Source: an uncultured Myxococcales bacterium (GTDB taxonomy: Bacteria > Myxococcota_A > UBA9042 > CAIXZC01). From it: 39,887 nucleotides of DNA. The notes beneath the pieces were generated by a model. That model saw nothing but the letters and a program-made list of their open reading frames with translations, did no database searches and was not told the origin of the DNA. How positions within the stretch are numbered: position 1 is the first letter of the stretch; every line of letters starts with the position of its first letter. The position numbers and the translations under genes were made by a program. This document shows, in pieces, positions 16,583 through 38,974 of this stretch. Where the stretch lies: the NCBI GenBank assembly GCA_903923815.1, contig CAIXZC010000007.1, forward strand, positions 1-39,887, written 5' to 3'.

Positions 16583-16591
16583 GGGCGGCCC

Positions 16592-16641
16592 CATACTGAA
16601 CAAGTTTTCAGTATGCTAGCGCCACGATTTGCCGCTGGCAA
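16592..16641 (-). promoter_or_regulatory. sigma70 promoter overlapped by a LexA/SOS-box-like palindrome upstream of the helicase
   Basis: Minus strand TTGCCA (16641-16636), 17-nt spacer, TAGCAT (16618-16613). Perfect inverted repeat CATACTGAA-N6-TTCAGTATG (16592-16615), i.e. TACTG-N10-CAGTA. Confidence 0.7.
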
Positions 16642-19402: not shown

Positions 19403-21619
19403 TCAGATTCTGCGGCGGGAGGACACCCGGAGGGTCGCCAGGCCCAGCAGCGCCAGGGCCAGCAGGAGGCCCGTGCTGGAGGAGGGCTGGGCCGCGGTGC
19501 TGCAGGAGCTGCCGCCCTTGCCACCGGTGGAGCTGCCCACGTCCTGGCCGCCCGTCTGGTCGCCCGTGGAGTCCGCGCCCTGGGAATCCGCCAGGCCGTC
19601 CACGCCATCCTTGTCCAGGGAAATATCGTCTCCGGGGCCCGCGCCATCGGGCGTGTTGATGGCGTCCTCACCTTCGCTGGTGTCGGTGGGCAGGACGGGG
19701 TCGATGCACTGGCCGTTCTCGCACTCCAGGCCCTCGGCGCAGGTGCCGCAGGAGAAGCCGCCGCCGTTATCGCCGCACTGCAGGCCAGCGCAGCCGGGAG
19801 GGAAGTCAAACTTGGGGTTGGTGCAGTCCTTGGGTTTGGTGCCGTCGGGGGCATTGCCCGAGCCACCGCAGCCGTACCAGCCGTCGGTGGACAGCCAGCC
19901 GCAGACACCGTCGCATTCGGTCACCACAAGGGTCTCTTCTTCGCAGTAGATCTCCACGTTGCCAAAGCAGCAGCCGTCGTAGGTGATGCCCACGCAGGGG
20001 TCCGCCACGCAGGCGCCCAGGGAGCACACGGTGCCGTTGCCGCAGGCGCAGTCCGTGGGGCAGCTGCTGCAGCTCTCGTCGTCGGAGCACTCGTCGTCGC
20101 CGCAGTTGTCCACCTTGCACACGCCGGCGCTGCACACCTGGCCGTCGCCGCAGCCGCAGTCCTGGGCGCAGTTCTGGCAGTTCTCGCCCTCGCCGCAGGT
20201 GTCGTCGCCGCAGCCGTTGGGCATGGGACAGGCACTGCAGTCGTTGCAGGCGCACTCCCACTTGGGGCCCCAGCAGCCGGGATCGGGCTGTTTGTCGGAG
20301 ATGCAGGCGCCGGTGTAGCCGCCCTCAGTGTTGTTGCAGGACCCGCCCACGCAGGTGCCATCCGGGACCCACTTCTCCAGGGGCAGGGCGGGGATGGTGC
20401 GGCTGATGCAGTGGATGGCGCCGGAATACAGCGAGATCTGATCCGAGTTGATACCCACGTGGGTCCAATCGGGCATGGCCTGCTTCCACACGGCCAGGGC
20501 CTGGGCCTCCCGGTCCTTGTCCACGGAGTAGATGGGCCAGAGGTTCAGCTTGGTGGTGCCGTCCGCGCTGACATACAGCGTGGAGTTGATGAAGGTGCGG
20601 GGGATCTCGCCGTAGCCGGGGTCGTCGCCGGGGTTGGGCATGACCATCCGGTACACCGTCATGGTGACGTCCTCGCCCAGGTCGATGCTCTTCAGCAGGG
20701 CCTCGTTGTCATCCATGCGCTTGGCGTTCTCCGAGTCATCCGCCACGTCGAAGTCGCCCAGGACGGCGCCATCCCTGGCGTAGAGCTTGAAGAACATGTC
20801 GATGTGGCCGGTGCCGTCGTTGGTGATGTCCTTGAGGATGATGGTCTTGTCGCAGGCGTAGTAGTCCTTGAAGATCTTGGACAGCTCGTCCCGGGAAAGG
20901 CCCGTGTTGGTCAGTTCCCGCTGGGTGGTGTAGCAGCGGCCCTCGCCGTCGGCCTGGAAGTTGCCGCCCTCGAGGGAGATGGGGGAGCGATAGGTGCTGG
21001 CACCAACCAGCCCGCCCAGGCGGGAGGGGATGGCGTCATCCAGGATGCGCTCGGGGTAGTAGACGAAATCGGCAAAGGCCACCTGATCGTCGTCGTTCAC
21101 CAGGGGCAGGGGGGCGTAGTCGATGGTCCAGATGGCGTCGTTGGGAAGCGTGAAGAACTTCAGCCTCTCGTCGATGGTGGCCTGGGAGGCCCCCAGGGTC
21201 TTGACCTTGCTGATCAGCGAATTCTTGACGGCGGTGCCCTCGTGGATGACCCATACCTCGCCGGCGGCCAGCGCGCCGTTGACCAGCTTGGCTTGGGTGT
21301 TGAAGACCTGGGCGTCGTCGGGCAGGTAGTCCGAGGCGGTCACGATCATGGCCTGCATGGGCTCCCACTCCTTCATGGCGCGGAAGGTGCCCGGGGCCGG
21401 CGGCTCGGTGATGGCGTACCACTGGGAATGGGAATCCCGATAGTCGCTGTAGTAGTCGGCCTTCTGGGCGGTCAGTTCACCAGCGGGCAGGGCGGTGGCG
21501 GGAAGGAACCCGGGTACGCGGCCGCCGGTAGCCACGGCCTCGCCGGGGGCATAGGCCTGCTCGGCACAGGACGCCAGCAGCAGAACGGCGCAGATGGAAT
21601 ACAGGGCAACGAGCTTCAT
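19403..21619 (-). CDS. Secreted agmatine/peptidylarginine deiminase-family protein with Cys-rich repeats and MYXO-CTERM-like tail
   Basis: Lipobox LASC. Family motifs [32 protein letters not shown]. Repeats like [20 protein letters not shown]-terminus GGSSCS + hydrophobic helix + RRR. Confidence 0.82.
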
Positions 21620-21824
21620 GGGACCTCCCACCTTTTCGGGGCTGTTCTTCAAACGCGCGCAACACTAACTAGCGTGACCCGCTTTGGCAATAGATTATTC
21701 CCGGCGCGGCCCGTGGCCTGCCACAAGAAAGTCCTTGCCTTTTTGGGCTAGAAAAAGATACTTACCCGCGGTCTGCCGTCATCTGGCGGCACAGGAACCG
21801 AGTCAGATTGGAAGGAGTCAAACG

Positions 21825-24072: not shown

Positions 24073-25773
24073 TTACTCGTCCTCATCCAGGTCGGGCACC
24101 AGCTCCAACTGGGGCGGGCCCAGGGGCCTATCGGAATACTCCGGGAAGAATTGCAGGCGTTCCAGGGTCTCCTCCAGCAGCTTCACCAACGGTCGCAAAG
24201 TGGCCGGATCCCGGGCGCTGATGCCTATGCAGTCCTCGTCCAGAGGCAGGTTCATACCCTGGGCCGCGGGTTTGTCCAGCTTGTTGAACACGGTGAGGCG
24301 CGGCGTGGCCTCCAGCTCCAGGTCCTCCAGGATCTGCTCCACCGCCGCCTGCTGCTCCTCCCAGTGGGGGTTGGACACGTCCACCACGTGGAGGAACAGG
24401 TCCGCCTGGGCCAGCTCCTCCAGGGTCGCCGTGAAGGCCTGCAGGAGGGTCCGTGGCAGGTTCCTGATGAAGCCCACGGTGTCCGTGATTACCAGCTCCC
24501 GATCCCTGGGGAAGCGCAGCCGCCGACTGAAGGGATCCAGCGTGGCAAACAGCTTGTCCTCGGCGTCCGCCGTCGCCCCCGTGAGGCTGTTCAGCAGGGT
24601 GCTCTTGCCCGCGTTGGTGTAGCCCACAATGGAGACCACCGGCACCCCCGTGCGCTGGCGCCGCCGCCGCCGGGTCTCGCGCTCCGAGGACAGGGCCTCA
24701 AGCTGCTTCTCCAGCCGCAAGATGCGCTCCTTGATGCGTCGCCGGTCGATCTCCAGCTTGGTCTCCCCGGGGCCCCTCCCGCCGATGCCGCCCATGAGCC
24801 GACTCATGGCCAATCCCGCTCCCACCAGCCGGGGCAGGATGTGCCGCAGTTGGGCCAGCTCCACCTGGATGCGTCCGTCGTTGGACCGGGCCCGCTGGGC
24901 GAAGATGTCCAGAATCAGCTGGGTGCGGTCCATCACCCGCACCTCCGCCAGCCGCGAGATGTTGCGCACCTGGGCTGCGCTCAGCTCGGGGCTGAACACC
25001 AGCAGGTCCACGCCCTTGTGCATGGCCTCCTGGATCAGCGCGTTCAGGCGCCCCGAGCCGATGAAAGTCGCGGGGTCCGGCCGCCGCCGCTGCACCACCG
25101 TGTCCACCACGTCGATGCCGGCGGACCTGGCCAACTCCTGAAGTTCCGCCACGTCCCAGTCCCCGTGCCGGGAGTTGCCGTGGTCCAGGTGCACCAGGAA
25201 GGCCCGCTCACCCCGGTTGTTCTCTGGGCGCCGGTCCCGGGTCTCCAGTTGATCGTCCAGGTCTCCCATCAGCGCGGCGAAGTCCACCTTCACGTCTGCC
25301 ACGGGGCAGCGGGGGTGGACCTCAAACTTCTTCCCGGCCGGGTTTTCGGGCAGCACGTGGGCCCAGGAGATGGTGGTGGGTCGGCTGGGGGGCGCGGGGG
25401 GCCACAGCACCGCCACGGCGTCCAGATACAGCAGCCCCAGATCGGTGAAGTCGTCGTCGTCCAGCTCGTCCCCCGGCGCATGGACATGCACAAAGCGCAC
25501 GCCCCGCAGCTTCCCGGGGGCCCGGCGGAAACGGTCGAACTCGGGCAGCTTGATCCCCCGCGCGTCCCCCAGCACCACGTACTGCACTTGCCCCTTGCGG
25601 TCCAGCACCAGCCCCACCTGCCGGCCCAGCAGGGTGGAGGCCGCGGCCAGTTCGTCGGCCAGTTCGGGGGGGATCAGGGCCTCGGGCTGGCAGCGACGGC
25701 GGTACAGGCGCTCCAGGGCGGCGGCATGGGAGGCCTTCAGACCAGTGGTTTCTCCATAGATTCGGCGGGTAAT
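24073..25773 (-). CDS. hflX: GTPase HflX, long form with N-terminal extension
   Basis: DRTQLILDIFAQRA, GIGGRGPGETKLE, G1 GYTNAGKST, LFATLD, DTVGF, NKLD. N-terminal IYGETTGLK domain. Start uncertain: ATT 25773 (good SD) or TTG 25797. Confidence 0.92.
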   Translation of the reverse strand: MTRRIYGETTGLKASHAAALERLYRRRCQPEALIPPELADELAAASTLLGRQVGLVLDRKGQVQYVVLGDARGIKLPEFDRFRRAPGKLRGVRFVHVHAPGDELDDDDFTDLGLLYLDAVAVLWPPAPPSRPTTISWAHVLPENPAGKKFEVHPRCPVADVKVDFAALMGDLDDQLETRDRRPENNRGERAFLVHLDHGNSRHGDWDVAELQELARSAGIDVVDTVVQRRRPDPATFIGSGRLNALIQEAMHKGVDLLVFSPELSAAQVRNISRLAEVRVMDRTQLILDIFAQRARSNDGRIQVELAQLRHILPRLVGAGLAMSRLMGGIGGRGPGETKLEIDRRRIKERILRLEKQLEALSSERETRRRRRQRTGVPVVSIVGYTNAGKSTLLNSLTGATADAEDKLFATLDPFSRRLRFPRDRELVITDTVGFIRNLPRTLLQAFTATLEELAQADLFLHVVDVSNPHWEEQQAAVEQILEDLELEATPRLTVFNKLDKPAAQGMNLPLDEDCIGISARDPATLRPLVKLLEETLERLQFFPEYSDRPLGPPQLELVPDLDEDE

Positions 25774-25966
25774 GGTGCACCTCCCCGGGCAGGACAAGCG
25801 GACCCCCTGGAGCCCGCGCGGCGCATCTTACTCCCACCCCCGCTGAATGCGCAACGGCGCGCCGCGTCAATGCATGACGGCGATGCAAGATTATTAGTTC
25901 CCGCGCTCGTCCCCAAGGTCCCATTTGGAGCCCTATCTCAAGTAGCCGCCACGCAAAAGTATTTGC

Positions 25967-26066: not shown

Positions 26067-27095
26067 TTGAGAAACGCCAGATTTTTCTTTGTGGTGGCCC
26101 TGCTTCTAGCGTGCCCCGGACGGCTGTTTGCCCAGTCCAATGCATATCCATTAGCTCTTACCGAGGAGGAACGCATACTCCAGGAGGCCGAGAGCTACCA
26201 AGCGCCCTTCGGCGTGTCGGTGGGGCTGGGACAGACGCTGGGTGCGGCCACCTTCAACGACAACGCGGGCGTCCGGCGCCCCTCCCTGGACATGAGCATC
26301 TCCGTGTCCCCCTACTGGCGCCTCACCAAGCTGATGCGACTGACGGCGGGCATAGGCACCTCCGTGGCCCTCGTGGAGAGCTATGACACCAACACCACCA
26401 AGCAGCATCAGTGGTACCTGTCGGATCTGTCCTTGGGCCTCAGCCACGCGCAGCTTGCCAAGATTCCGGGGGCGGACATTGGCGTCAGCGGCCAGGTGTC
26501 CCTGGGCTTCCCCACCAGCCTCCAGAGCCAATACCGCGAGTTGATCATGGCCATGCGGGCAGGTCTGGGCTTCTCCCGTGCCTTTGGCCCCGTGTACGTG
26601 TCCTACGGCATCGGCGTGTTCAAGAACCTCAATCGCTACACCTCCCCGACCCTCAGCCGCGAGGAAGTGGGCGATCATGTCATCCTGTCCCACTACCAGG
26701 GCAACGAGAACCTGACCTCCGACCTGGTGGCCCTGGGCGGCAACAACACCAGCTTCGGCATCAGCAACAGCCTGCTGGTCAGCTATTACATCATTGATCC
26801 CCTGTCGTTCACCGTGGCCTACACCCTGTCCAACTCCTGGACCTACCGCTCCTACTCCAACGACGAGTACGCCTCGGAGTACGCCGACGGCGGCCGCGGC
26901 CAGCGGGACAGCCACTCGGGCGTGGTGGACATCACCTACCAGTTCAATGATGTGTACTCGCTGGGCCTGGGCGTCCAGACGGTGGCCGCCCCGCGGACGG
27001 CCGACAACAAGGGATGGACCTTTCCGTTCCTGAACTTTTCCAATGACTACCGCTCGAACACGGGAATCTATCTCGGGTTCAACGCGGCGTTTTAG
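26067..27095 (+). CDS. Putative outer-membrane beta-barrel protein, family unknown
   Basis: TTG start after GGGAGG, signal peptide, many alternating amphipathic strands rich in G/S/Y/F. C-terminal GIYLGFNAAF ends in Phe (BAM beta-signal-like). Confidence 0.72.
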   Translation: MRNARFFFVVALLLACPGRLFAQSNAYPLALTEEERILQEAESYQAPFGVSVGLGQTLGAATFNDNAGVRRPSLDMSISVSPYWRLTKLMRLTAGIGTSVALVESYDTNTTKQHQWYLSDLSLGLSHAQLAKIPGADIGVSGQVSLGFPTSLQSQYRELIMAMRAGLGFSRAFGPVYVSYGIGVFKNLNRYTSPTLSREEVGDHVILSHYQGNENLTSDLVALGGNNTSFGISNSLLVSYYIIDPLSFTVAYTLSNSWTYRSYSNDEYASEYADGGRGQRDSHSGVVDITYQFNDVYSLGLGVQTVAAPRTADNKGWTFPFLNFSNDYRSNTGIYLGFNAAF

Positions 27096-27146
27096 TCCGG
27101 TTGGGGCTTTCATTGGCGACAACGGTTTTCTTCAGGAGGTAACTTG

Positions 27147-30100
27147 ATGAGGCGGGCAGGCTTTTTGACTTACGTTGCTCCGTTCCTCGCCGCCATGCTG
27201 TGGCTGACTTCTTGCGCCACAGAGGTGGGAGACATCGACCGGACCGATCCCAACAAGATCAAGAAGGCCGATCTGAGAGGCGTGTGGTACTACGTCTCCA
27301 CGGTCATCGATTCCCCCAACCCTTCGCCCTTCACCTTCAATGGTGAGATGAACTTCGGCGGCGGCTTGAAGGTGATCTTCGATGTCCAGGAGGACTACCT
27401 GGTGGCCTACCCCGTCACCGAGACCACCGCCGTGGGCGCGGAAGAGGGCTGGCACATCAGCACCATCCGCAACTACTGGGACGAGGGCAAGTCCGACCAG
27501 TTCATGGAGATGTACGTCGGGCAGCCCGTGGCGGCCTTCAAGATCGAAAAGCATTTCGATGTGATCCGCCAGTACAACCCCCAGACCGGCGAGCAGAGCA
27601 ACGTCATCGTCGAGGACACCGCCGACAAGCTCTGGTTTGAGCGCAGCTACCTGCGCGTCAACTGGACCGAGAACAGGGTCAAGGACCTGATGTTCCTGGC
27701 GGCCATCGAGGGTTCTCCCACGGACTACTACGTCCAGGAGTACGAAGAGGACAACCCCGATGCCTTCGAGATGACCGCGGACTCGATCAACTTCGTGAAC
27801 CGCATCTTCGCCCAGCCCGTGGGGCCCGAAGCCTGCAACATCTACGGCATCGGCGCGGCGGACTGCGCTGGCGCGGTCATCAAGATCCGCCACAGCTTCC
27901 GCAAGGCCGACCCCAACAACGACTACGTGGCGCTGTACTACCCGGAGACGGATCAGCAGGACAAGTTCGGCTTCTTCCTCACCGAGCACTACGGCTACGA
28001 CTACGACCACGGCGTGCTGCTGTCCAACAAGGTCTACCTGATCAACCGTTGGAACCTCTGGAAGAACAGCCGCGACGTGCAGGCCATCACCGACGCTGCC
28101 ACCGGCGAGAATGTCCCCTGCAAGGTCGACGCCGACTGCAAGGACCTGGCCCCCGAGGGCATCCACAACACCCACTGCTGGGTTGACAACGGCTGGTTCT
28201 CGGACGGCCACTGCGTGACCTGGGACTCCCTGGCCTACAAGGACCGGGAAGTGCAGCCCGTGGTCTACCATGTGTCGGCCCAGTGGCCCAAGGAGTTGGA
28301 GCGGGCCATCTACACGACCAACAACCAGTACTCCGAGGCCCTCAAGGACACCGCCGCGTGGCTGAAGCTTTACTCCGAGAAGGGCATCGCCGACCTGCGC
28401 TACTGCGACACCAACGCCGACTGCGCCGCCCACGCCCTCATCGACACCGAGATCGCCCACACCCACGGCCGCGTCTGCGCTGACGACGCTGCCTGCCAGG
28501 TGGGCGTGTCCGCTGACCAGAAGGCCCTGTACTCCTGCCCCGCCGGCTACTGCGTGAAGGCCGTGGCCTGCTCCGCCACCGCCCCCTGCGCCCTGGGCCA
28601 GACCTGCACCGCTGGCGTCTGCAAGGATGCCCAGGCTGCCTTGGTCGTGAACGAGGTGAAGGACACCGGCGCCTATACCTTCTATATGAACGTCGGCACG
28701 GACGGTGCCTTGAAGACCCAGGTCTCCGAGGACGACTCCTACCCCAAGATTCCTTCTGGCAAGGCCCTCATCCGCGTGGTCAACCTGAACACCGCCGTGG
28801 GCCCCGTGACCCTCAGCGACGAGAACGGCCCCCTGTGTGACGTGGACGTGCCCTTTGCCGCCACCGACGACGACTACCTGGTCCCCGGCAACTGCAACCT
28901 GGGCACCGCCACCACCATTCGCAACATCCAGGTCAAGGACCAGAGCGGCGCCCTGGTGGGCACCGTCAACGGCGTGCGCATCGCCAAGGACGCCATCATC
29001 ACCGTGGTGGTCTCCGGCAACGCCACCCTCAAGGGCGTCATGGCCTTCAGCATCACCGTCAAGTCCCTGGGCACCAAGGGCATCCGCTTCGTGCATGCCT
29101 TCCCCGGCAAGAGCGGCGTGGACTTCGCCCTCAACGGCGGCCTGCGCTCGTCTGACCTGCGCTTTGGCATGGCCAGCCCCTACACCGGCATGCGCAAGGG
29201 CAACAACCGCATCACCGTCATCAACCACGGCGAAGCGGGCGACGTGACCTGCTACAACAACAAGGGTGTGGGCACCTGCACCGGTTGGAGAACCGAACTG
29301 GACGACAAGGACCTCGCCCGGGTCAAGGAGATCAAGGCCACCCTCCCCGAGATGTTCGTGGTCTGCGACAACGTGTTCACCGGCGACGCCTGCGACCCCA
29401 ACGAGGCCGCCGCTGGCGCCCCTACGGGCAACGAGCAGGTGGACCGCGAGGCCCGCAATGACTGCCGTTACTGGTGGTTCGACAAGGCCGTCTCCAGCTG
29501 GCGCAACCCCTGCAAGGAAGTCCCCGGCGCCTACGACATCAAGAAGCACGGCGACATTCGCTACTCGTTCATCTACTGGGTGGGCGAGAACCAGGCCGCC
29601 TCCCCCCTGGGCTACGGCCCCTCCGCGGCGGACCCCAAGACGGGTCAGATCTACCACGCCTGCGCCAACATCTACGGCGCCGACATGCTGACCTACGCCC
29701 AGTACTCCCGGGATCTGCTCAAGCTCTCCACGGGCGAGCTGACCACCGAGAACATCGCCACCGCGGATTACATCAAGGAATACATCGAGAACAACCCCCC
29801 CGATAACGGTTACGGCAGCCTCTACGCGCCGCTGCTGGACAAGGCCCTGATTGACAAGAAGGCTGGGGAGAATCTGGCCAAGCGCCCCAACATGAAGCGC
29901 TTCTGGATGACCCCCGCCGAGCAGACCCGCGTCCTCCAGCAGATCAATGATCCGGTGGTGAAGCGCATGGCCATGGACCCCAAGTTCGCTTGGAAGAAGG
30001 CCGTGGACTCCCTGGTGGACGGGTTCAGCCCCGCCGCCGCCATCGCCCGCATGGGCCTCATCAAGGGCACCTGGCTGGAGAAGCTGCTGATCAACGAAGA

Positions 30101-32690
30101 AGTGAAGGCCGCCGTGGCCGGTGGCAGCAGCCTGCTGCACAACCACGATGCGGAGGATGCCGCCGCCGACAAGATGTCCCCCCTGTACTGGGGCAACCGG
30201 GACTTCAGCCGCAGCGAGCGTCAGCGCCTGGTGAACCTTGGCGAGAAGAGCTACTGCATGTCCGACAGCGACGAGCCCAACGTCCTGGGGTCCGCCCTGC
30301 GCATCGCCGAGTGGTGCAAAGACGAGGCCAACCGCGTGGACTACGGCGGGGATGAGGAGAACTGCATCTACTGGGAGATCACCCAGGAGATGTTCGAAGG
30401 CACCCTGCTGCACGAAGTGGGTCACACCGTGGGTCTGCGGCACAACTTCACCGCCTCCACCGACGTGTACAACTACTTCGACCCCTACTACACGAAGCGC
30501 GACCTGGACTACAAGAAGTGCACCATGGAGGGCTCCTACGGCTGCCTCTTCTTCGACCAGATCTGCAAGCTGATCTGCGCCTCCAATTCGGACTGCTACC
30601 AGCCCGGCAGCGTCTGCAAGTCCGTCGAGGTTGAGGGCCAGACCGTGAAGGCCTGCGTGGACGCCCGCGGCGACCTGGCCGGCACCTGCATGGACAAGGT
30701 CAAGGAGCGCAAGTACTGCAACACCTCCTCCGAGTGCGTCGATGCCCTCGGCCTGGAGGCCAAGAACGTCACCTGCCAGAAGGGCCCCGAGCAGGCCTCT
30801 GGCCTGTGCGCCACCCGTGGCGTACCCATGACCTTTGGTGGCACCTGCCCCCAGAACCAGATTGAGAAGAACGGCTACTGCCTGAAGAACGACAAGTGCG
30901 ACACCGCCGCCGGGGTCTGCGAGAAGGAAGGCGGCCAGGCCTGCGCCAAGGACGACGACTGCCAGATCACCTGGACGCTCTGGGAAGGCCCCGAGCAGAC
31001 GGTCCCCGTGAAGGGCTACATGCCTCGCCCCTACCTGACGGACAACGAGGCCAGCAACGGCCGCGTCGAGTACCAGTACTCCTCCCTCATGGACTACGGC
31101 GGGACCATCAACTTCGACCTTTACGGCCTGGGCAAGTACGACACCGCCGCCCTGCGCTTCGGTTACGGCGAACTGGTGGACGTCTACACTGACAAGCGCC
31201 ACCTCGAGCAGGCCCTGGTGAAGGTCCAGCGCGTGTGGTCCGGTGACACCCTGGAGCAGACCTCCAGCTTCGTGTACGACACGGAAGTCCACAGCCAGCT
31301 CATCTTCTCGCCCTACATGACCCTGTTCGACTTCATCGGCATCAAGGAGAACCTCTCCCGCGTGCCCGCGCCCTACCGGCAGGCCCGCCTGGAGAAGACC
31401 ATGAACCTCTCCAACGACCGCGGCCTCTACGACTCCACCTTCCTGATGGTGCCCTACAAGGCCAAGTACGACGGGTGGATGGGCTCCTTTGAGACCTACA
31501 TCTTCGACATCGGCGCGGACCTCACCGAGATCGTCGGTCACTCCTGGTCCAAGCTGCACGACTACTACGTCTACGATGCCTTCAAGCGGGACCGCCTCCA
31601 GGCCTTCCGCTACGGCAACCCCCTGGGCTACTACACCCGCATCCTCGAGCGCTGGCTGCCCCCCATGCAGGACGCCGGCCGCTTCTACGCCCTGTACTAC
31701 AACTCCCTGCGCGCCTATGCGGACGCCCGGGACCTGTACTTCAACAACATCCTGGCCTTTGGTCACCTGAAGGTGGCGTCGGACTACTCCGTGCAGAAGC
31801 TCACCGAGCTCATCGCCTCCCCGGCCCCCGGCTCCTACGCGTTCATGGACGACGGCGAGGGCGACCCCCGGTACGTGAACTTCAGCTTCAAGTCTGCCCA
31901 GCCCGGCAGCGAGCTGGACATCCCCATCGGCGACGGCAAGTTCCCCTTCACCACCTACTACGCCGACGCGGGCTACAACTACTTCTCCCACGCCGAGTGG
32001 ATCGGCTCCTTCTGGGAGAAGCTGGCCGCCACCCAGATCCTGACGGACTCCACCGGCTACTTCATCGGCGACTACATCGGCGAACAGATCGATGTGGGCG
32101 TGGGCGCCAGCGTGGGCTTCAACACCGTCTACTACACGGAGCTGACCAACCTGTTGGCCGGCATGATCGTGGGCGACCGCAACCGCTTCTCTCCCTACGT
32201 GGAAGACGGCCAGCTCAAGCCCTTCGACGTGCTGCACCCCTGGGAAGCCGACGGCAAGCCCCGGGTGGAGACCTCCATCGAGTCCATCACCATGAAGGCC
32301 TACCTGGCCCTCTACGGCTACGTGTTCATGGGCGGCGGCTTCGACCCCGGGTTCATCGACTCTCTGTACCTGTGCATCAAGGGCAGCGGCGACTGCTACG
32401 ACATCTCCACGGGCGCCCTGGCCCCCGAGGTCATCGAGTTCACCGACCCCTGGAGCAAGAAGACCTATCAGGCCCGCACGGCCAACTACGATCCCGCCCG
32501 CGTCAACGCCTCCTACGACTTCCTCACGAAGCTCAACGCCATCAAGGCCGAGTACGAGCAGTGGGAATGGGGCGAGTCCGCCGACACGGACGCCCAGAAG
32601 GCTACGCTGGAGAAGAAACTTCACGAACAGATTGAGCTGCTGGACCTCATGGTCTCGTTCAATCGCATGTTCGGCAACCTGAACTACTAG
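27147..32690 (+). CDS. Giant zinc-dependent metalloprotease lipoprotein, paralog 1 (metzincin-like) with Cys-rich and DUF4397-like inserts
   Basis: AGGAGG SD, lipobox LTSC, HEVGHTVGLRH (from 30411), Met-turn SSLMDY, GYGP...DPKTGQI motif. Confidence 0.85.
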   Translation: MRRAGFLTYVAPFLAAMLWLTSCATEVGDIDRTDPNKIKKADLRGVWYYVSTVIDSPNPSPFTFNGEMNFGGGLKVIFDVQEDYLVAYPVTETTAVGAEEGWHISTIRNYWDEGKSDQFMEMYVGQPVAAFKIEKHFDVIRQYNPQTGEQSNVIVEDTADKLWFERSYLRVNWTENRVKDLMFLAAIEGSPTDYYVQEYEEDNPDAFEMTADSINFVNRIFAQPVGPEACNIYGIGAADCAGAVIKIRHSFRKADPNNDYVALYYPETDQQDKFGFFLTEHYGYDYDHGVLLSNKVYLINRWNLWKNSRDVQAITDAATGENVPCKVDADCKDLAPEGIHNTHCWVDNGWFSDGHCVTWDSLAYKDREVQPVVYHVSAQWPKELERAIYTTNNQYSEALKDTAAWLKLYSEKGIADLRYCDTNADCAAHALIDTEIAHTHGRVCADDAACQVGVSADQKALYSCPAGYCVKAVACSATAPCALGQTCTAGVCKDAQAALVVNEVKDTGAYTFYMNVGTDGALKTQVSEDDSYPKIPSGKALIRVVNLNTAVGPVTLSDENGPLCDVDVPFAATDDDYLVPGNCNLGTATTIRNIQVKDQSGALVGTVNGVRIAKDAIITVVVSGNATLKGVMAFSITVKSLGTKGIRFVHAFPGKSGVDFALNGGLRSSDLRFGMASPYTGMRKGNNRITVINHGEAGDVTCYNNKGVGTCTGWRTELDDKDLARVKEIKATLPEMFVVCDNVFTGDACDPNEAAAGAPTGNEQVDREARNDCRYWWFDKAVSSWRNPCKEVPGAYDIKKHGDIRYSFIYWVGENQAASPLGYGPSAADPKTGQIYHACANIYGADMLTYAQYSRDLLKLSTGELTTENIATADYIKEYIENNPPDNGYGSLYAPLLDKALIDKKAGENLAKRPNMKRFWMTPAEQTRVLQQINDPVVKRMAMDPKFAWKKAVDSLVDGFSPAAAIARMGLIKGTWLEKLLINEEVKAAVAGGSSLLHNHDAEDAAADKMSPLYWGNRDFSRSERQRLVNLGEKSYCMSDSDEPNVLGSALRIAEWCKDEANRVDYGGDEENCIYWEITQEMFEGTLLHEVGHTVGLRHNFTASTDVYNYFDPYYTKRDLDYKKCTMEGSYGCLFFDQICKLICASNSDCYQPGSVCKSVEVEGQTVKACVDARGDLAGTCMDKVKERKYCNTSSECVDALGLEAKNVTCQKGPEQASGLCATRGVPMTFGGTCPQNQIEKNGYCLKNDKCDTAAGVCEKEGGQACAKDDDCQITWTLWEGPEQTVPVKGYMPRPYLTDNEASNGRVEYQYSSLMDYGGTINFDLYGLGKYDTAALRFGYGELVDVYTDKRHLEQALVKVQRVWSGDTLEQTSSFVYDTEVHSQLIFSPYMTLFDFIGIKENLSRVPAPYRQARLEKTMNLSNDRGLYDSTFLMVPYKAKYDGWMGSFETYIFDIGADLTEIVGHSWSKLHDYYVYDAFKRDRLQAFRYGNPLGYYTRILERWLPPMQDAGRFYALYYNSLRAYADARDLYFNNILAFGHLKVASDYSVQKLTELIASPAPGSYAFMDDGEGDPRYVNFSFKSAQPGSELDIPIGDGKFPFTTYYADAGYNYFSHAEWIGSFWEKLAATQILTDSTGYFIGDYIGEQIDVGVGASVGFNTVYYTELTNLLAGMIVGDRNRFSPYVEDGQLKPFDVLHPWEADGKPRVETSIESITMKAYLALYGYVFMGGGFDPGFIDSLYLCIKGSGDCYDISTGALAPEVIEFTDPWSKKTYQARTANYDPARVNASYDFLTKLNAIKAEYEQWEWGESADTDAQKATLEKKLHEQIELLDLMVSFNRMFGNLNY

Positions 32691-32702
32691 GAGGTTGGGA
32701 CC

Positions 32703-35700
32703 ATGAGGACCTTTGGAAAGCTTGTGATGAGAATCCTCCCGACCGTTGCCCTGCTTGGCCTGGTGGCCTCCTGTGCTCAGGATGTTGGGGAAATCGACCG
32801 GACCCAGAACAACATCGTCCAGAAGCAGGACCTGGAGGGCGAGTGGTACTTCCGCCAGACCACGGTGGAGACGCCCTACTCGTCTGCCTACTCCTTTGAG
32901 GGCGACACCTCCAAGATGGAGCGCGGCGTCTTCGAGATGCAGGAGAACAACCTGTTCTTCTACCGGACCTACGAGTTCCAGTACAACACCGAGACCATCG
33001 GTATGAAGGGTGACACGGACACCCCCTACCTGGGGTGGCTGCCCGGCGAGACCGCCAAGTACACCCCCAACCCGTACCAGTCTCGGGACCGCAAGTTCGC
33101 CGTGGGTCTGGAGGCCAAGGATGGCGAGGGCAACACCCTGGCCTGCGGCACCCAGAAGACCCCCCACGACTTCTGCCAGTCTGAACTGCGGGACCAGTAC
33201 CTCTACTGTGGCCATGCCTCCACCGCGGCCGCTGCCGACCGCACCAAGGACAACGCAGTCTGCGTGCACCCCACGCGCTTCGTGTACCGGGGCGCCCCCC
33301 TGGCCATCTTCCCCATCCAGGGCCACATCGACGTCATCTGGGAGTACAACCCCTCCACCGGTGAGAAGACCAACGTCCTCACCGAGAACTCCTCTGACCG
33401 CTTCTGGTACGAGCGGGACTACATGCGGGTGAACTGGGCCGAGACCCAGATCAAGAACTTCTCCATGACGCTCGCCTCTGTGCTGGACGAAGTTGCCATC
33501 ACCGTCTACGAGGGCGACGCCGCCCCCGAGGGCGAGAACTACCGGATGTTCCGGGATGATTCCGACAGCCCCAACTACTTCGACTACGTGGCCAAGTACA
33601 TCTTCACTGCGCCCACCATGGCCCTGGAGGGCTGGGGCGACGTGCCCATCTGCCTGTTCTACCCCTGGTACGTGGGCGGCATCTACGAGTGCACCTCCGA
33701 GCAGATCAAGATCCGTTCGGCCTTCCTGAAGGTTGACCAGAACGACACCTACCGCCCCTGGGACTACGACGACCACCTGCTGGGCAAGTTCGGCTACTTC
33801 CGCACCGAGCGCGCCAACTTCGACGACCGTTACGACGTCACCTACGGCGGCGTGTCCAACTACATCGACCGCTACGACCTGTGGAAGACCCACGTCTACA
33901 AGGCCGACGGCAGCGAGGACTTCGCCGCCATGGAGCCCGCCCCCATCGTCTACTACCTGTCCAAGGACTTCCCCCGGGAGTACGTCCCCGAGGCCATCGC
34001 CATCGGCAAGGCTTGGTCCAAGCCCTTCGAGGACACCGTCAACTTCCTCAAGCCCGGCGCGGCCGGCGCTGACAAGCCCATGTTCGTGGTTTGCGAGAAC
34101 AACAACACCGAGGCTCAGGTTGCTGCCGACGCGGGCCAGCCCGTGGCCGAGACCAACGCCGCCCTGTGTCGCGACATGGACTACGCCAAGCTGGCCGGCG
34201 ACCTTCGCTACAGCTTCATCGTGGCCATTGAGCGCCCCATGAGCGCCGGCCTGCTGGGCTACGGCCCGCCGTCCCCGGACCCCCTCACGGGCAAGATCAT
34301 CTCCGGCAACGCCCACATCTACATCGCCCCCATGACCCGTCAGGCCAACAGCGCCGCGGACCTCATCGAGTACGTCGTGGGTGCCAAGGACTACTCCTCC
34401 GTGGCCGAGGGCCTGGACAAGGCCGAGACCTTCTACGCCGACATGATCGGCGTGAACGCCAACCCCCCGCCCAAGGACGTGGCGGCCGCCCGCCAGCTCA
34501 TCGCCGGCTCCATCAAGCCCCAGACCCGGGCCCAGTTGCTGGCCAATGGCATGAAACCCCAGGACAGCGACTGGGTGTCCATGCGCATGGGCCTCATCTC
34601 CAGCAATCCCCAGCTTGAGGCCTCCCTCATCCTGCCCTGGTTCCGCTCCCTCTTCCGTGACCCCACGGTGGGCACCACCGAGACCCTCACCGGCGAGCGC
34701 GCCGAGGAGATGTCCCTCAAGAACTGGGCCAACTACAAGGGCTTCGAGCGCCAGATGGACCGCATCCGCTTCTACGCCAAGAACTTCATGACCCGCGAGG
34801 AGTTCATGGATGGCGCCATCATGGACGTGGTCAAGCAGTGGGAAGGCCGCTACAACGAGGGCATCTGCTCTGCCGTGGAGAACGCCATCGCTGACGGCAC
34901 CGAGCTGTCCTTCGACATGGCCGAGTTCGACATGGTCAAGGACGCCTGCACGGCCGCCGAAGAGGGCGCCGTCCGCCAGCGCGAGGACTACCCCATTCTC
35001 AGCAACGTCAAGCCCTACAACGCCGGCGTGGCCATGGCGGGCGACACCTGCCTCAAGGTCGAGCAGGGCGACGTCAACGGCTACTACTGGGTGAACACCT
35101 GCACCGTGGAGAAGCTGGGCCGTCAACTCTCCGCCCGCATCCTCGAGGCCGAGCAGTGGTCCTCCTACGCCTACTGGCCCCCCGCGGCCTGGTACTACAG
35201 CGTCAAGGAACCCAAGATGGCCGCCACGCAGAAGTTCATGAAGGATCAGTTTGAGGCCCTCCGCAAGGAGGTCATTGCGGACATCATGTCCCGCGAGTTC
35301 GACTCCCTGACCATTCACGAACTGGGTCACACCCTCGGTCTGCGCCACAACTTCGAGGCCACCACCGACGCCATGAACTTCCCCAAGGAATACTGGGCCC
35401 TGAAGCTGCCCGCCGAGGCCGGTGTGCCCGTGGACATCTTCGGTGCCGAGAAGACCTACCAGCGGGAAGGCGGCATGCGGGGCCTGCAGTACAGCTCCAT
35501 CATGGACTACGGCGCCAAGTTCAACTCCCTGTGGCATGGCCTGGGGCTCTATGACCACGCCGCCATCAAGTTCGGCTACGGCGGCATCATGGAGGTCTTC
35601 ACCGAGGCCCCCGACCTCAGCACCTACCAGGACTACCTGGCGGAGCCCGAGAACACCGGCACCCCCTGGCAGGTCCCAGCCGTCCGCCAGGATGAAAGCA

Positions 35701-37190
35701 AGATCGCGGCCCTGTTCAAGACCGTCCACTACACCAAGATCCCCGAGGTCTTCGGCGGCGTGGACAAGGTCTATGCCCGTAAGGATCTGCCCTGGACCGA
35801 CGTCGTCGGCAACCTGTGCAGCAGCGACGCGGACTGCGTCACGGACGGCGGCTGCGAGGGCTGCACCGTGTGCCGCGCCCAGCTTGGCAAGTCCTACTGC
35901 GGCGCCCCCGACAAGGTCGAAGTGCCCTACCGCTTCTGCTCCGACGAGTACGCCGGCCGCACCCCCCTGTGCAACATGTGGGACGAGGGCGTGGATCCCT
36001 ACGAGATCACCCGCAACACCCTGGAAGATTACTGGTGGTACTGGCTGTTCTGGGGGCACTGGCAGCAGAACCTGCTGTTCCACTATGAGAACTACTCCTG
36101 GCGCGTGATGTTCGCCTTCACCCGCGTCAAGCAGCAGTTCCAGTGGTGGGCCGTGAACTACGTGCGCTACAACACCGCGGACTTCTGGCAGAAGCGCTTT
36201 GGCATGCCCTGGGAAGAGGACCTCAACGGCGGTCTGGTTGGCGCCGTGGCCTCTCTGGAGGGCTTCAACGCCCTGATGTCCGTGTTCGCCATTCCCGATG
36301 GTGTCTACCCCGACACCCGGTACTACGGCTTCAACGCGGACAACAACCGCTATGAGACCATGACCGACTACAACCGGGACGCCCTGTCCAAGTTCTTCGT
36401 GTTGGAAGAGAACGCCGGCCGCTTCGGCGCCCGTCCCCTCTACCCGTCCTACATCTTCTATGGTGAGATGATGCAGCCCGTCACCGCCGGCGCCATCTAC
36501 GACCGCCTCAACGCCCTCACGGTGCTGTGCGATCCCATGACCAACTTCCTCAACATCGACGAGTTCCCCGATCACCGCAGCTACCTGGTGAACTACTACA
36601 ACTTCTTCCCCGACAAGATGATCCGCCTGCTGGGCGGCCTGACCACCCACCGCGCCGAGAACTACGCCCCCTGCGTGGTCGAGGACAACGCCGGCAACCC
36701 CCTGCGGCTGTCCCTGCGCACCTGGCAGAACATGGATGACGAGAACTTCTGCGCCTCTGGCCACTACCTCGAGCCCGAGCCCGTGGACTACGACTTCCCC
36801 ACCACCTGGTACCGTATCCCCATGCTGGCCGCCTACTTCGGCATGAGCCTCATGGTGAACAACTACGACCACCGGTTCCTGGACACCACCCGGATCTTCC
36901 TCAAGGGTCACGAGGACGCCATTGACATCCCCGCGGATGCCGAGGTCGTCGAGTTCCCCGATCCCTTCAGCGGCAAGACCTACGTGGCCTACAAGACCGG
37001 CGACAAGGAGACCTTCGACACGGCCTTCTACTTGGTCACTCAGGCCCTGGATCTGTTCTCCCAGTACAAGAACGTGGAGGACCTCCAGCAGGCCTACCAG
37101 TTCGAAGGCTACCTGCAGCGCATGGTGGGCCTGCTTGAACTCATCCGCTCCATGCACGCCGCCTTCGACTACACCAACATCGTTCTCTAG
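32703..37190 (+). CDS. Giant zinc-dependent metalloprotease lipoprotein, paralog 2
   Basis: SD AGGAGG overlaps the upstream TAG. Lipobox VASC, HELGHTLGLRH (from 35316), Met-turn SSIMDY, YRFCSDE, GYGP...DPLTGKI. Confidence 0.85.
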   Translation: MRTFGKLVMRILPTVALLGLVASCAQDVGEIDRTQNNIVQKQDLEGEWYFRQTTVETPYSSAYSFEGDTSKMERGVFEMQENNLFFYRTYEFQYNTETIGMKGDTDTPYLGWLPGETAKYTPNPYQSRDRKFAVGLEAKDGEGNTLACGTQKTPHDFCQSELRDQYLYCGHASTAAAADRTKDNAVCVHPTRFVYRGAPLAIFPIQGHIDVIWEYNPSTGEKTNVLTENSSDRFWYERDYMRVNWAETQIKNFSMTLASVLDEVAITVYEGDAAPEGENYRMFRDDSDSPNYFDYVAKYIFTAPTMALEGWGDVPICLFYPWYVGGIYECTSEQIKIRSAFLKVDQNDTYRPWDYDDHLLGKFGYFRTERANFDDRYDVTYGGVSNYIDRYDLWKTHVYKADGSEDFAAMEPAPIVYYLSKDFPREYVPEAIAIGKAWSKPFEDTVNFLKPGAAGADKPMFVVCENNNTEAQVAADAGQPVAETNAALCRDMDYAKLAGDLRYSFIVAIERPMSAGLLGYGPPSPDPLTGKIISGNAHIYIAPMTRQANSAADLIEYVVGAKDYSSVAEGLDKAETFYADMIGVNANPPPKDVAAARQLIAGSIKPQTRAQLLANGMKPQDSDWVSMRMGLISSNPQLEASLILPWFRSLFRDPTVGTTETLTGERAEEMSLKNWANYKGFERQMDRIRFYAKNFMTREEFMDGAIMDVVKQWEGRYNEGICSAVENAIADGTELSFDMAEFDMVKDACTAAEEGAVRQREDYPILSNVKPYNAGVAMAGDTCLKVEQGDVNGYYWVNTCTVEKLGRQLSARILEAEQWSSYAYWPPAAWYYSVKEPKMAATQKFMKDQFEALRKEVIADIMSREFDSLTIHELGHTLGLRHNFEATTDAMNFPKEYWALKLPAEAGVPVDIFGAEKTYQREGGMRGLQYSSIMDYGAKFNSLWHGLGLYDHAAIKFGYGGIMEVFTEAPDLSTYQDYLAEPENTGTPWQVPAVRQDESKIAALFKTVHYTKIPEVFGGVDKVYARKDLPWTDVVGNLCSSDADCVTDGGCEGCTVCRAQLGKSYCGAPDKVEVPYRFCSDEYAGRTPLCNMWDEGVDPYEITRNTLEDYWWYWLFWGHWQQNLLFHYENYSWRVMFAFTRVKQQFQWWAVNYVRYNTADFWQKRFGMPWEEDLNGGLVGAVASLEGFNALMSVFAIPDGVYPDTRYYGFNADNNRYETMTDYNRDALSKFFVLEENAGRFGARPLYPSYIFYGEMMQPVTAGAIYDRLNALTVLCDPMTNFLNIDEFPDHRSYLVNYYNFFPDKMIRLLGGLTTHRAENYAPCVVEDNAGNPLRLSLRTWQNMDDENFCASGHYLEPEPVDYDFPTTWYRIPMLAAYFGMSLMVNNYDHRFLDTTRIFLKGHEDAIDIPADAEVVEFPDPFSGKTYVAYKTGDKETFDTAFYLVTQALDLFSQYKNVEDLQQAYQFEGYLQRMVGLLELIRSMHAAFDYTNIVL

Positions 37191-37204
37191 TCAGACCCCC
37201 TAGA

Positions 37205-37224
37205 CCCCGGCCTTCGGGCCGGGG
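37205..37224 (+). terminator. GC-rich hairpin with cUUCGg tetraloop after the metalloprotease genes (terminator or 3' stabiliser)
   Basis: CCCCGGCC-TTCG-GGCCGGGG, perfect 8-bp stem. No U-tract follows. Confidence 0.45.
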
Positions 37225-37243: not shown

Positions 37244-38974
37244 ATGCGTTTTTCCCGTTATCACATCCCCACCTTGAAGGAAGCCCCCCGCGACGCCGAG
37301 TTGGCTTCCCATGTCTTCCTGGTCCGCGGCGGCTACATGCGCATGATGGCCGCGGGCATCTACGACTTCCTGCCCCTGGGCCAGCGGGTCCTGCGCAAGG
37401 TGTCGGAGATCATCCGTCAGGAGCTGGACCGTGCCGGCGCCCTGGAGGTCCTGCTGCCCGCTGTGCAGCCGTCGGATCTGTGGGTCGAGTCGGGCCGCTG
37501 GGAGAAGTACGGCCCCGAGCTGCTGCGCTTCCGGGACCGTCACGACCGGGAGTTCTGCCTGGGCCCCACCCATGAAGAAGTCATCACCGATCTGGTGCGT
37601 CGGGACGTGCGCTCCTACCGGGACCTGCCCCTCAACCTGTACCAGATCCAGTTCAAGTTCCGGGATGAGATCAAGCCCCGCGGTGGCCTCATGCGTGGGC
37701 GAGAGTTCATCATGAAGGACGGCTACTCCTTCGATAAGAACGCTGACAGCGCCAAAGAGACCTACTGGGCCATGTACCACGCCTACGAGCGCATCTTCCG
37801 GCGCTGCGGGCTGCAGTTCGCGGCAGTCGAGGCCGACACCGGCAACATCGGCGGCACCATGTCCCACGAGTTCCAGGTCATGGCCGACACGGGCGAGGAC
37901 TACGTCTTCCAGTGCAGCTCCTGTGGCTTCACCGTGAACCAGGAACTGGCGCCCCTGCCCGAGGTGCCCCTGGCCCCCGCGCCCGCCGGGCTGCCCGCTT
38001 TCTCCAAGGTCTCGACCCCCGGCGCCCACACGGTTGAGCAGGTGGCCGAGTTCTTCAAGATTGCCGGCTCTGACCTCATCAAGACCCTCATCTACAACGT
38101 GGACGGGCAGGCCGTGGCGGCCCTGGTGCGTGGAGATCAGGAGGTTTCGGAGGTGAAGCTGCGCCGGGCCCTGGGCGCCTCCACCGTGGAGCTGGCCGAC
38201 GAGGCCACCATCCTCAAGGTCACCGGTGCCCCCGTGGGCTTCGCTGGTCCCGTGGGCCTGACCATCCCCATCATTGCAGACTTTGGCTTGACGGGCAGCG
38301 GCGCCATGGTCGTTGGCGCCAACGCCGACCAGCACCACCTGCGGGACACGGTCCTTGGCCGGGACTACCAGCCCAGCCGCTTCGCCGACATCCGCGAGCC
38401 CGTGGACCAGGACCCCTGCCCCCGCTGTGGCAAGGGCCTGTACCGCCTGTTCCGGGGCATCGAGGTGGGCCACGTGTTCTTCCTGGGCACCAAGTACTCC
38501 GCCCCCATGAACTGCAACTTCCTGGACGAGGACGGCAAAGAGCAGCACTGCGTCATGGGCTGCTACGGCATCGGCGTGACCCGCATCATGGCCTCCGCCA
38601 TCGAGCAACGACACGACGCCAAGGGCATCTGCTGGCCCGAGGCCATCGCCCCCTTCCAGGTCACCATCCTGCCCATGCAGATGAACGAGCCCCGCGTGGT
38701 GGAGGCAGCCGAGAAGCTGACCGCCGACCTGGAGGCTCTGGGCCTGGAGGTCCTGCTGGATGACCGGGATCTGCGCCCCGGCGTGAAGTTCGCCGATGCG
38801 GATCTGGTGGGCATTCCCTGGCGCATCATCATTGGCACCAAGCGCCTGGACGCCGGCGAGGTGGAACTGGTCCGCCGCCAGGGCGCCGAGGCCTCCGTGG
38901 TGTCCCTGGCCGAGGTCGCCGCGCTGGTGAAGGCCAACGTGCAGGCAGCCCTGGACGCCGGCCGCAGCGCCTAG
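37244..38974 (+). CDS. proS: Proline--tRNA ligase (bacterial type with INS editing domain)
   Basis: LGPTHEE, FRDEIKPRGGLMRGREFIMKDGYSF, IEVGHVFFLGTKYS, MGCYGIG, C-terminal anticodon-binding domain. Confidence 0.97.
   Translation: MRFSRYHIPTLKEAPRDAELASHVFLVRGGYMRMMAAGIYDFLPLGQRVLRKVSEIIRQELDRAGALEVLLPAVQPSDLWVESGRWEKYGPELLRFRDRHDREFCLGPTHEEVITDLVRRDVRSYRDLPLNLYQIQFKFRDEIKPRGGLMRGREFIMKDGYSFDKNADSAKETYWAMYHAYERIFRRCGLQFAAVEADTGNIGGTMSHEFQVMADTGEDYVFQCSSCGFTVNQELAPLPEVPLAPAPAGLPAFSKVSTPGAHTVEQVAEFFKIAGSDLIKTLIYNVDGQAVAALVRGDQEVSEVKLRRALGASTVELADEATILKVTGAPVGFAGPVGLTIPIIADFGLTGSGAMVVGANADQHHLRDTVLGRDYQPSRFADIREPVDQDPCPRCGKGLYRLFRGIEVGHVFFLGTKYSAPMNCNFLDEDGKEQHCVMGCYGIGVTRIMASAIEQRHDAKGICWPEAIAPFQVTILPMQMNEPRVVEAAEKLTADLEALGLEVLLDDRDLRPGVKFADADLVGIPWRIIIGTKRLDAGEVELVRRQGAEASVVSLAEVAALVKANVQAALDAGRSA

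Follow-up and report, generated by a model that had tools for sequence, protein, structure and literature searches.

Introduction

In the Slam or type 11 secretion systems (T11SS) the gene of an outer-membrane barrel lies beside the gene of the lipoprotein that it serves, and Slam genes adjoin their lipoprotein cargo in 185 of 353 cases (PMC5449769). In Vibrio cholerae the surface lipoprotein hydrolase VolA is co-expressed with the outer-membrane barrel FadL (PMC3656444). FapF forms a barrel of 12 strands that contains a helical plug; its conserved PTG motifs include one in the loop between strands beta5 and beta6, and its closest solved relative is Pput2725 (PMC5557850). The COG4313 proteins, to which the channel Pput2725 belongs, are 270-320 amino acids long when mature, with a lumen occluded by an N-terminal segment and a conserved cluster of Asp92, Thr94, Pro119-Thr120-Gly121 and Tyr123 (PMC4493636). 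On the protease side, the "Met-zincin" proteins built of DUF5118, DUF5117 and DUF4953 are about 850 amino acids long, occur in Bacteroidota and others, and are all uncharacterised. In this work we analyse a contig of an uncultured Myxococcales bacterium (CAIXZC010000007.1, 39,887 nt, forward strand; this whole stretch is called the window below), in which the gene of a small predicted outer-membrane barrel is followed by two genes for very large paralogous metzincin lipoproteins, A and B. As in Slam systems a barrel gene lies beside lipoprotein genes, with a barrel of a different type, and as with VolA and FadL, in outline, a lipoprotein hydrolase accompanies an outer-membrane barrel; VolA, however, is a lysophospholipase, and FadL has 14 strands, unlike the proteases and the 12-stranded barrel of this locus.

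We find that the barrel and the protease form a unit that is conserved across phyla, of which the A/B pair is a lineage-specific elaboration. The parts are known already, i.e. a metzincin and a small 12-stranded outer-membrane barrel; what is undescribed is the conservation of their coupling, the split-domain architecture of the giant proteases and their occurrence as twins. A literature search that left subscription journals and supplements outside its reach returned nothing on DUF4953, DUF5117, DUF5118, PF16313 or TIGR03952/metzin_BF0631, and, judged by the titles and abstracts of the papers listed, nothing on a cassette of metzincin lipoprotein and outer-membrane barrel, for which no curated family was found either. 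A preliminary description of this DNA, made from its letters, had likewise assigned the genes to no characterised system, and that judgement holds.

Organization of the locus

The plus strand of the window carries three co-directional open reading frames (ORFs) spanning 26067-37190, followed by a hairpin:

26067..27095, plus strand: barrel gene; 342 amino acids, secreted, signal peptide ending LFA/QS, C-terminal Phe
27144..32690, plus strand: paralog A, metzincin lipoprotein; 1848 amino acids, likely start ATG 27147
32703..37190, plus strand: paralog B, metzincin lipoprotein; 1495 amino acids
37205..37224, plus strand: GC-rich hairpin with a TTCG loop and no T tract, between the stop of B and the proS start at 37244

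If ATG 27147 is taken as the start of A, 51 nt (27096-27146) separate the barrel gene from A and 12 nt (32691-32702) separate A from B, so that the ORF coordinates bear out the co-orientation and the gaps first reported for the trio. AGGAGG at 27134-27139 lies 5' of the A start, and GGAGG at 32690-32694 precedes B, overlapping the stop codon of A. Tightly spaced as they are, the three genes are a real operon. Two bounding signals had been proposed for it, a promoter and a hairpin, and one of them stands. The hairpin (CCCCGGCC-TTCG-GGCCGGGG) lies in a 59-nt stretch that folds with -26 kcal/mol (z -2.44), though it has no T run and is absent from the terminator scan list. The promoter scan returned 1 site vs 1.4 expected, no better than chance, and that site ends on the start codon. 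The operon is flanked by the housekeeping genes hflX (24073-25797, minus strand) and proS (37244-38974). The source genome is a metagenome-assembled genome (MAG) of 3.49 Mb in 482 contigs, and this trio is its sole locus of the kind. DNA close to the window was found in lake-water or freshwater sequencing runs only.

Conservation of the barrel with the proteases

We sampled 40 relatives of the same class and find the order barrel-A-B kept in 34 of them. In 26 the three genes stand in order on one contig and one strand, and 8 more (G001, G005, G008, G012, G021, G028, G032, G034) have the same arrangement cut by contig ends. Genome G016 (95% complete) yielded none of the three genes, and G040 is without the A/B pair; A orthologs are present in 40 of 41 genomes. 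Order and strand are identical in all 19 trio loci that were fetched. Over 20 loci the lipobox Cys codon follows the preceding stop codon at a median distance of 137 nt for A (after the barrel gene) and 114 nt for B (after A), which, once the signal peptide is subtracted, means short intergenic gaps across loci.

The association extends to the phylum. In an evenly drawn sample of 151 genomes, whose related members are not independent observations, the barrel family occurs in 69 and the protease family in 79; both are found in 68, the barrel alone in 1, the protease alone in 11 and neither in 71. The sole genome with a barrel and no protease has the weakest barrel match of all (E 7e-7). Larger relatives also carry second modules, in which a divergent barrel paralog lies directly beside a single protease (G002:C36, G012:C241, G009:C703, G013:C8), with protease frames of about 1,140-1,930 amino acids. 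Thus the co-conservation of the barrel with the protease pair, on which the preliminary description had staked its proposal, is borne out by adjacency in the class and by genome-level association in the phylum.

A wider sample comprised 79 protease loci, one genome per species. The first-round barrel profile detected a barrel in 27 of these loci and, after iteration within the set, in 37; the E-values of the later rounds relate to a small collection of ORFs, and the agreement in position is the stronger argument. In 35 of the 79 loci the gene immediately 5' of the protease, in the same orientation, is the barrel; in L043 the barrel is directly downstream, and in L065 it is divergent. A barrel with a single protease (about 1085-1540 amino acids) is found in Bdellovibrionota, Photobacterium, Ferrimonas, Aeromonas, two Vibrio species and Motilimonas, and the adjacency as a whole is seen in three phyla. 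Among 18 short family members (about 840-1025 amino acids; Bacteroidota, Planctomycetota, Gemmatimonadota and others) none has a neighbouring barrel. Proteases without a barrel have no conserved neighbour, with no gene cluster recurring in more than 2 of 20 loci. The conserved unit is therefore the barrel with a protease, crossing phyla; the scope first given to the system, barrel plus pair, is indeed conserved and was too narrow.

A search with the protease gave 852 proteins at E<=0.001. Public names are generic, e.g. "membrane protein", "outer membrane receptor protein", "Transporter" and "zinc-dependent metalloprotease", and these include the Vibrio barrel and the Aeromonas protease. Exact look-ups of two Myxococcota modules (L124, L125) returned no names, and Pfam and NCBIfam find nothing on the Vibrio barrel and the Aeromonas protease beyond the zinc site.

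The barrel protein

The signal peptide of the barrel protein is of the AxA type, with no conserved lipobox Cys, and across 28 aligned homologues the chain ends in Y (18), F (8) or L (2). An AlphaFold2 (AF2) model has 12 strands, with a helix at residues 33-43 ahead of strand 1 (predicted local distance difference test, pLDDT, 72.7; predicted template modelling score, pTM, 0.70), in accordance with the expectation that the first ORF would fold as a barrel. An independent Atlas model (pTM 0.74) matches clusters that bear PF13557, with template modelling (TM) scores of 0.58-0.61. Among solved structures FapF (5o65) and the COG4313 channel Pput2725 (4rl8) come closest in fold, in a statistical tie. 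CymA and OmpG score within 1.5 Z units of these matches, so the assignment stops at the fold class, short of a family. Residue D120 is invariant, and P149-T150-S151 follows directly after strand 5, with P149 and S151 invariant and T150 kept in at least 90% of sequences.

The published descriptions of FapF and COG4313 fit the barrel model. Sequence identity to FapF and Pput2725 is 9-11%, and the long periplasmic coiled-coil and linker that precede the plug of FapF are missing, the barrel having only the 11-residue helix 33-43. No Fap family is named in the Pfam scan of the other ORFs of the window, in which no search aimed at Fap was made. FadL-type proteins (Toluene_X, PF03349) have 14 strands and a hatch, whereas the barrel model has 12 strands and Toluene_X is matched weakly by 2 of 28 members. 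Slam proteins combine a TPR domain with a 14-stranded DUF560 barrel, whereas the 12-stranded model is accompanied by no TPR or DUF560 match. The remaining curated-family matches over the 28 members are 9 weak ones to OMP_b-brl and 3 to DUF6029; none of the 28 matches Pfam PF13557 at E<=1, and a search of the PDB with the barrel profile gives no match at E<=10. We take the barrel to be a member of the FapF/COG4313 fold class that belongs to neither family itself. The family is large, with 1347 clusters at 50% identity at E<=0.001 and 338 at E<=1e-30.

In some barrel families (members P0034-P0043 of alignment A1) the signal peptide and the barrel are separated by a long extension of low complexity in which Ala, Pro and Glu abound; the family of the window has a short conserved helix motif, TEEER..EEAK, in its place.

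The proteases

Paralogs A and B carry the following features:

27204..27215, plus strand: lipobox of A, L-T-S-C24, followed by ATEVGDIDRT
29082..29234, plus strand: region of DUF4397 beta-sandwich, in A only; two stretches, the better at residues 647-697
30411..30443, plus strand: zinc-binding motif of A, HEVGHTVGLRH, residues 1090-1100
31083..31097, plus strand: Met-turn of A, SLMDY, residues 1314-1318, with a Cys-rich insert between zinc motif and Met-turn
32763..32774, plus strand: lipobox of B, V-A-S-C24, followed by AQDVGEIDRT
35316..35348, plus strand: zinc-binding motif of B, HELGHTLGLRH, residues 872-882
35496..35510, plus strand: Met-turn of B, SIMDY, residues 932-936

BLASTP aligns A with B in six collinear blocks (E 2e-27 to 5e-8, 26-52% identity) that run from the signal peptides to the C-termini (last 230 residues). 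All ten motifs that had been quoted for the pair are found, and the claim that A and B are collinear paralogs from end to end is upheld, as are the shared HExxHxxGLxH and Met-turn and the difference in inserts. The latter is plain in the window, where the zinc motif and the Met-turn are 224 residues apart in A and 60 in B, and where DUF4397 (E 1.9e-11, 45 bits vs a Pfam cut-off of 30.6) occurs in A alone. For retention of the motifs we used 21 loci, i.e. the window and 20 relatives that cover 12 of the family codes of the class. The spacing is 127-270 residues in A, with its Cys-rich insert, and 59-69 in B. Every one of the 21 A and 21 B sequences retains HExxHxxGxxH, and all 42 retain the Met-turn [ST]xM[DE]Y; M934 and Y936 of B are invariant (alignment A2). 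Neither A nor B looks like a dead enzyme, and by their motifs both appear catalytically competent. The lipobox Cys is followed in both paralogs by a conserved segment, C-A-x-x-[VI]-G-x-I-D-R-T...K...G-x-W-Y, a pattern that was found in A orthologs 18 times out of 20 and in B orthologs 19 times out of 20. It misses two A rows (L110 and the window), which carry the Cys and the motif by eye, and one B row (L109), whose open frame begins truncated.

In the Pfam database A and B match DUF4953 near the zinc site only, apart from DUF4397 in A. Both score above the DUF4953 cut-off (35 and 37.4 bits vs 24.2), but the match covers positions 7-36 of 316 in the profile PF16313, i.e. only about 29 of them. 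NCBIfam TIGR03952 (metzin_BF0631 lipoprotein) gives 13.9 and 14.0 bits, far under its cut-off of 208.1. Comparison of profiles with hhalign aligns B 361-534 with residues 284-420 of a Flavobacterium protein (L095, 856 amino acids) at a probability of 97.9% (E 6e-13), and the aligned part of that protein is the region between its DUF5117 and its DUF4953. This link makes A and B greatly expanded relatives of the DUF5118-DUF5117-DUF4953 superfamily, with which they have the zinc site HExxHxxGLRHNF and the Met-turn in common. They are 1.7 to 2.2 times longer than those proteins and, unlike them, are lipoproteins that travel with a barrel and have a helical insert of about 300 residues within the catalytic domain.

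The insert is seen in an AF2 model of B residues 25-1200 (pLDDT 79.3, pTM 0.80). An alpha/beta subdomain at model residues 391-535 (B 415-559) is parted by the mostly helical insert from the long active-site helix, model residues 813-853, which contains H872, E873 and H876. Solved metzincins match the model with Z 10.7 to 8.9 over 131-191 aligned residues spread across model residues 338-948, among them MMP-9 (8k5v), EcxA (4l6t), MMP-2, serralysin, snapalysin and astacin, at 12-20% sequence identity. What the model shares with these enzymes is the fold of their catalytic core; EcxA is the A subunit of the ECX AB5 toxin. Taken together with the secondary-structure string of the model, these fold matches lead us to regard the catalytic domain of B as split: as modelled, it is a metzincin fold interrupted by the helical insert. 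Unlike the solved metzincins, the core of B is interrupted and is flanked by a large beta-rich N-terminal region and a helical C-terminal region. A and B thus carry the marks of the metzincin clan, with the extended zinc motif and the Met-turn in both and the catalytic fold in the model of B. Foldseek with the whole 1176-residue model gives no match at E<=0.001, a search in which the beta-rich N-terminus (model 1-330) and the helices at the C-terminus were barely probed. The single sequences of A and B find nothing in the PDB at E<=1, and the B profile finds 14 matches, all with E 0.64 or worse. In the Atlas, B has no record and its homologue P0053 no model.

Origin of the protease pair

We aligned 80 long protease rows with hmmalign. 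Trees made with FastTree and with the quick mode of IQ-TREE (the latter from 44 rows and 1080 columns) place A and B orthologs in distinct clades, each with full support, and the order within one clade mirrors that within the other. Given this topology, the A/B duplication predates the diversification of these lineages, and A and B evidently arose, to judge from the trees, by an old tandem duplication.

A single duplication for all tandem pairs was tried and rejected. A constraint that keeps 15 "first" genes apart from 15 "second" genes, a grouping chosen after the tree was viewed, costs a log-likelihood difference of 220.5 (approximately unbiased, AU, test, p 8e-38). Without the pairs of L045, a Myxococcaceae MAG, and L037, a Myxococcota MAG, the constraint is not rejected (p 0.28). 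The members of these two pairs are each other's closest relatives, with support of 98 and 100. Since these two pairs alone break the constraint, tandem pairs arose at least 3 times, or gene conversion homogenised both loci; the close kinship within each pair points to one or the other.

Other genes in the window

The window also encodes, at 6372-12488 on the plus strand, a PilQ-type secretin of 2038 amino acids, with AMIN at 29-119, Secretin_N at 1706-1767 and Secretin at 1870-2026. Usual PilQ proteins are far shorter. About 1,450 residues, in which E, K, A, R and Q are abundant and which resemble a coiled coil, separate the AMIN from the secretin N domains of this protein, whose gene sits in a pilM...pilO...pilQ cluster. 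At 13326-16603 on the minus strand a MrfA-like DEAD-box helicase with an MZB zinc domain adjoins an ORF of the RNase_H_2 superfamily; the two frames overlap, so their start codons are uncertain. A 749-amino-acid ORF at 19403-21652 on the minus strand has a Porphyromonas-type peptidyl-arginine deiminase domain (PAD_porph, E 4e-31).

Discussion

The barrel family is essentially never present without the protease family (68 of 69 genomes) and barrel paralogs adjoin protease paralogs. FapF, one of the two nearest folds, exports polypeptide, and, as Slam shows, barrels encoded next to lipoprotein genes can be their translocons (PMC5449769). For these reasons we favour a dedicated partnership, in which the barrel would be the outer-membrane partner that brings the protease lipoproteins to the cell surface or holds them there, a reading that we put somewhat short of an even chance. 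The operon would then be a vertically inherited envelope operon that combines a 12-stranded barrel of the FapF/COG4313 class with two giant metzincins anchored in the outer membrane. A and B would be carried to the outer membrane by the Lol pathway and then enabled by the barrel to reach the surface, or held there by it; at the surface, perhaps paired, they may degrade extracellular or prey protein, in keeping with a proteolytic or predatory lifestyle. The weakest step is the direction in which the barrel acts, i.e. display or anchoring vs uptake of products. A and B occur strictly together, their genes are 12 nt apart and duplications recur, which makes a heterodimer of the two a reasonable guess. 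The preliminary description had proposed a heteromeric outer-membrane proteolytic complex in which the barrel exports, anchors or imports. Of this, the coupling of barrel and protease stands, as does the barrel fold as modelled; the complex itself does not yet, and the barrel may have any of the three roles.

Several observations weigh against a dedicated partnership. The link between barrel and protease is not obligate. In family f8 (4 genomes) A and B have no adjacent barrel; three of these genomes (G019, G026, G033) have a strong barrel ortholog on another contig, and in the fourth, G037 (95% complete), no barrel was found. The barrel is unlinked from the listed protease in G046, G052, G057, G067 and G087, and lone barrel orthologs lie apart from protease genes at L102 (G019:C149), L103 (G033:C70) and L126 (G052:C1:358044-359129). 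G052, of family f21, is a complete genome of 5.0 Mb in which the neighbours of the barrel, DUF547 and a TPR protein, are unrelated. In the phylum sample 11 of the 79 genomes with the protease family have no barrel, and in the wider sample many myxobacterial single proteases of 1230-1400 amino acids have none adjoining. The pore of a 12-stranded barrel is narrow, and the Cys-rich inserts of the proteases, if oxidised in the periplasm, would block threading through it. Of the two solved folds closest to the barrel, that of COG4313 belongs to a channel that takes up hydrophobic molecules. Finally, no RNA runs are listed among the sequencing runs with DNA close to the window, and no expression data were found.

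The resemblance to COG4313 is also what lends weight to the main rival, in which proteins or lipopeptides would be cleaved by A and B on the cell surface and the products, perhaps hydrophobic ones, imported by the barrel. Such a division of labour follows the logic of VolA and FadL in V. cholerae (PMC3656444). We nevertheless regard it as unlikely, if the most credible of the alternatives, given that none of the 28 barrel members matches PF13557, that peptides normally use general porins, and that no inner-membrane peptide transporter is linked to the genes. The near-constant company of the protease family and the pairing of paralogs, moreover, speak for a coupling that is specific to a protein rather than to a solute. 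The other nearest fold suggests a different alternative, in which A and B would face the periplasm and serve a FapF-like export channel, processing an unlinked cargo or the channel itself, or would remodel envelope proteins. FapF is the best structural match of the barrel and works with an operon-encoded protease, FapD, which is needed for secretion (PMC5557850), and the orientation of an outer-membrane lipoprotein cannot be read from its sequence. FapD, however, is a small C39 cysteine peptidase unrelated to A and B, the operon includes no cargo gene and none is conserved beside it, and the barrel has helix 33-43 alone before strand 1 where FapF has its long coiled-coil. The giant, Cys-rich and DUF4397-bearing architectures, too, resemble extracellular enzymes, and we consider this periplasmic role improbable.

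Least likely by far is that the barrel and the proteases are co-inherited neighbours with no functional link. The loss of adjacency in family f8 and in the five genomes listed above is what such neighbours would produce, but three phyla show the adjacency, 35 of 79 loci have the barrel gene immediately before the protease gene, the genome-level association is 68 of 69, and G016 is without all three genes together. Dedicated partnership, the reading we prefer, also has a bolder form, to which we assign a rather low probability, slightly below that of product uptake: the barrel may be an unrecognised translocon or display device for lipoproteins, of FapF/COG4313 fold and unrelated to Slam, whose lateral seam passes the lipid-anchored N-terminus of a giant protease to the outer leaflet. 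If so, Myxococcota, Bdellovibrionota and some vibrios would own a private route for surface proteases, and selection for enzymes that work as heterodimers would be what lies behind the recurring tandem duplication of the protease.

How lipoproteins are placed on the surface of Gram-negative bacteria outside Bacteroidota and Neisseria is a largely open question, and the cassette, which ties a small barrel genetically to one family of very large protease lipoproteins, would make it testable. Its carriers include predators (Myxococcota, Bdellovibrionota) as well as Vibrio and Aeromonas, which are culturable and genetically tractable. Should the partnership of barrel and protease prove true, two unannotated families, the barrel and the protease, would gain a role, and it could identify surface proteases that are important to predation or to particulate-protein turnover in lake and marine waters.

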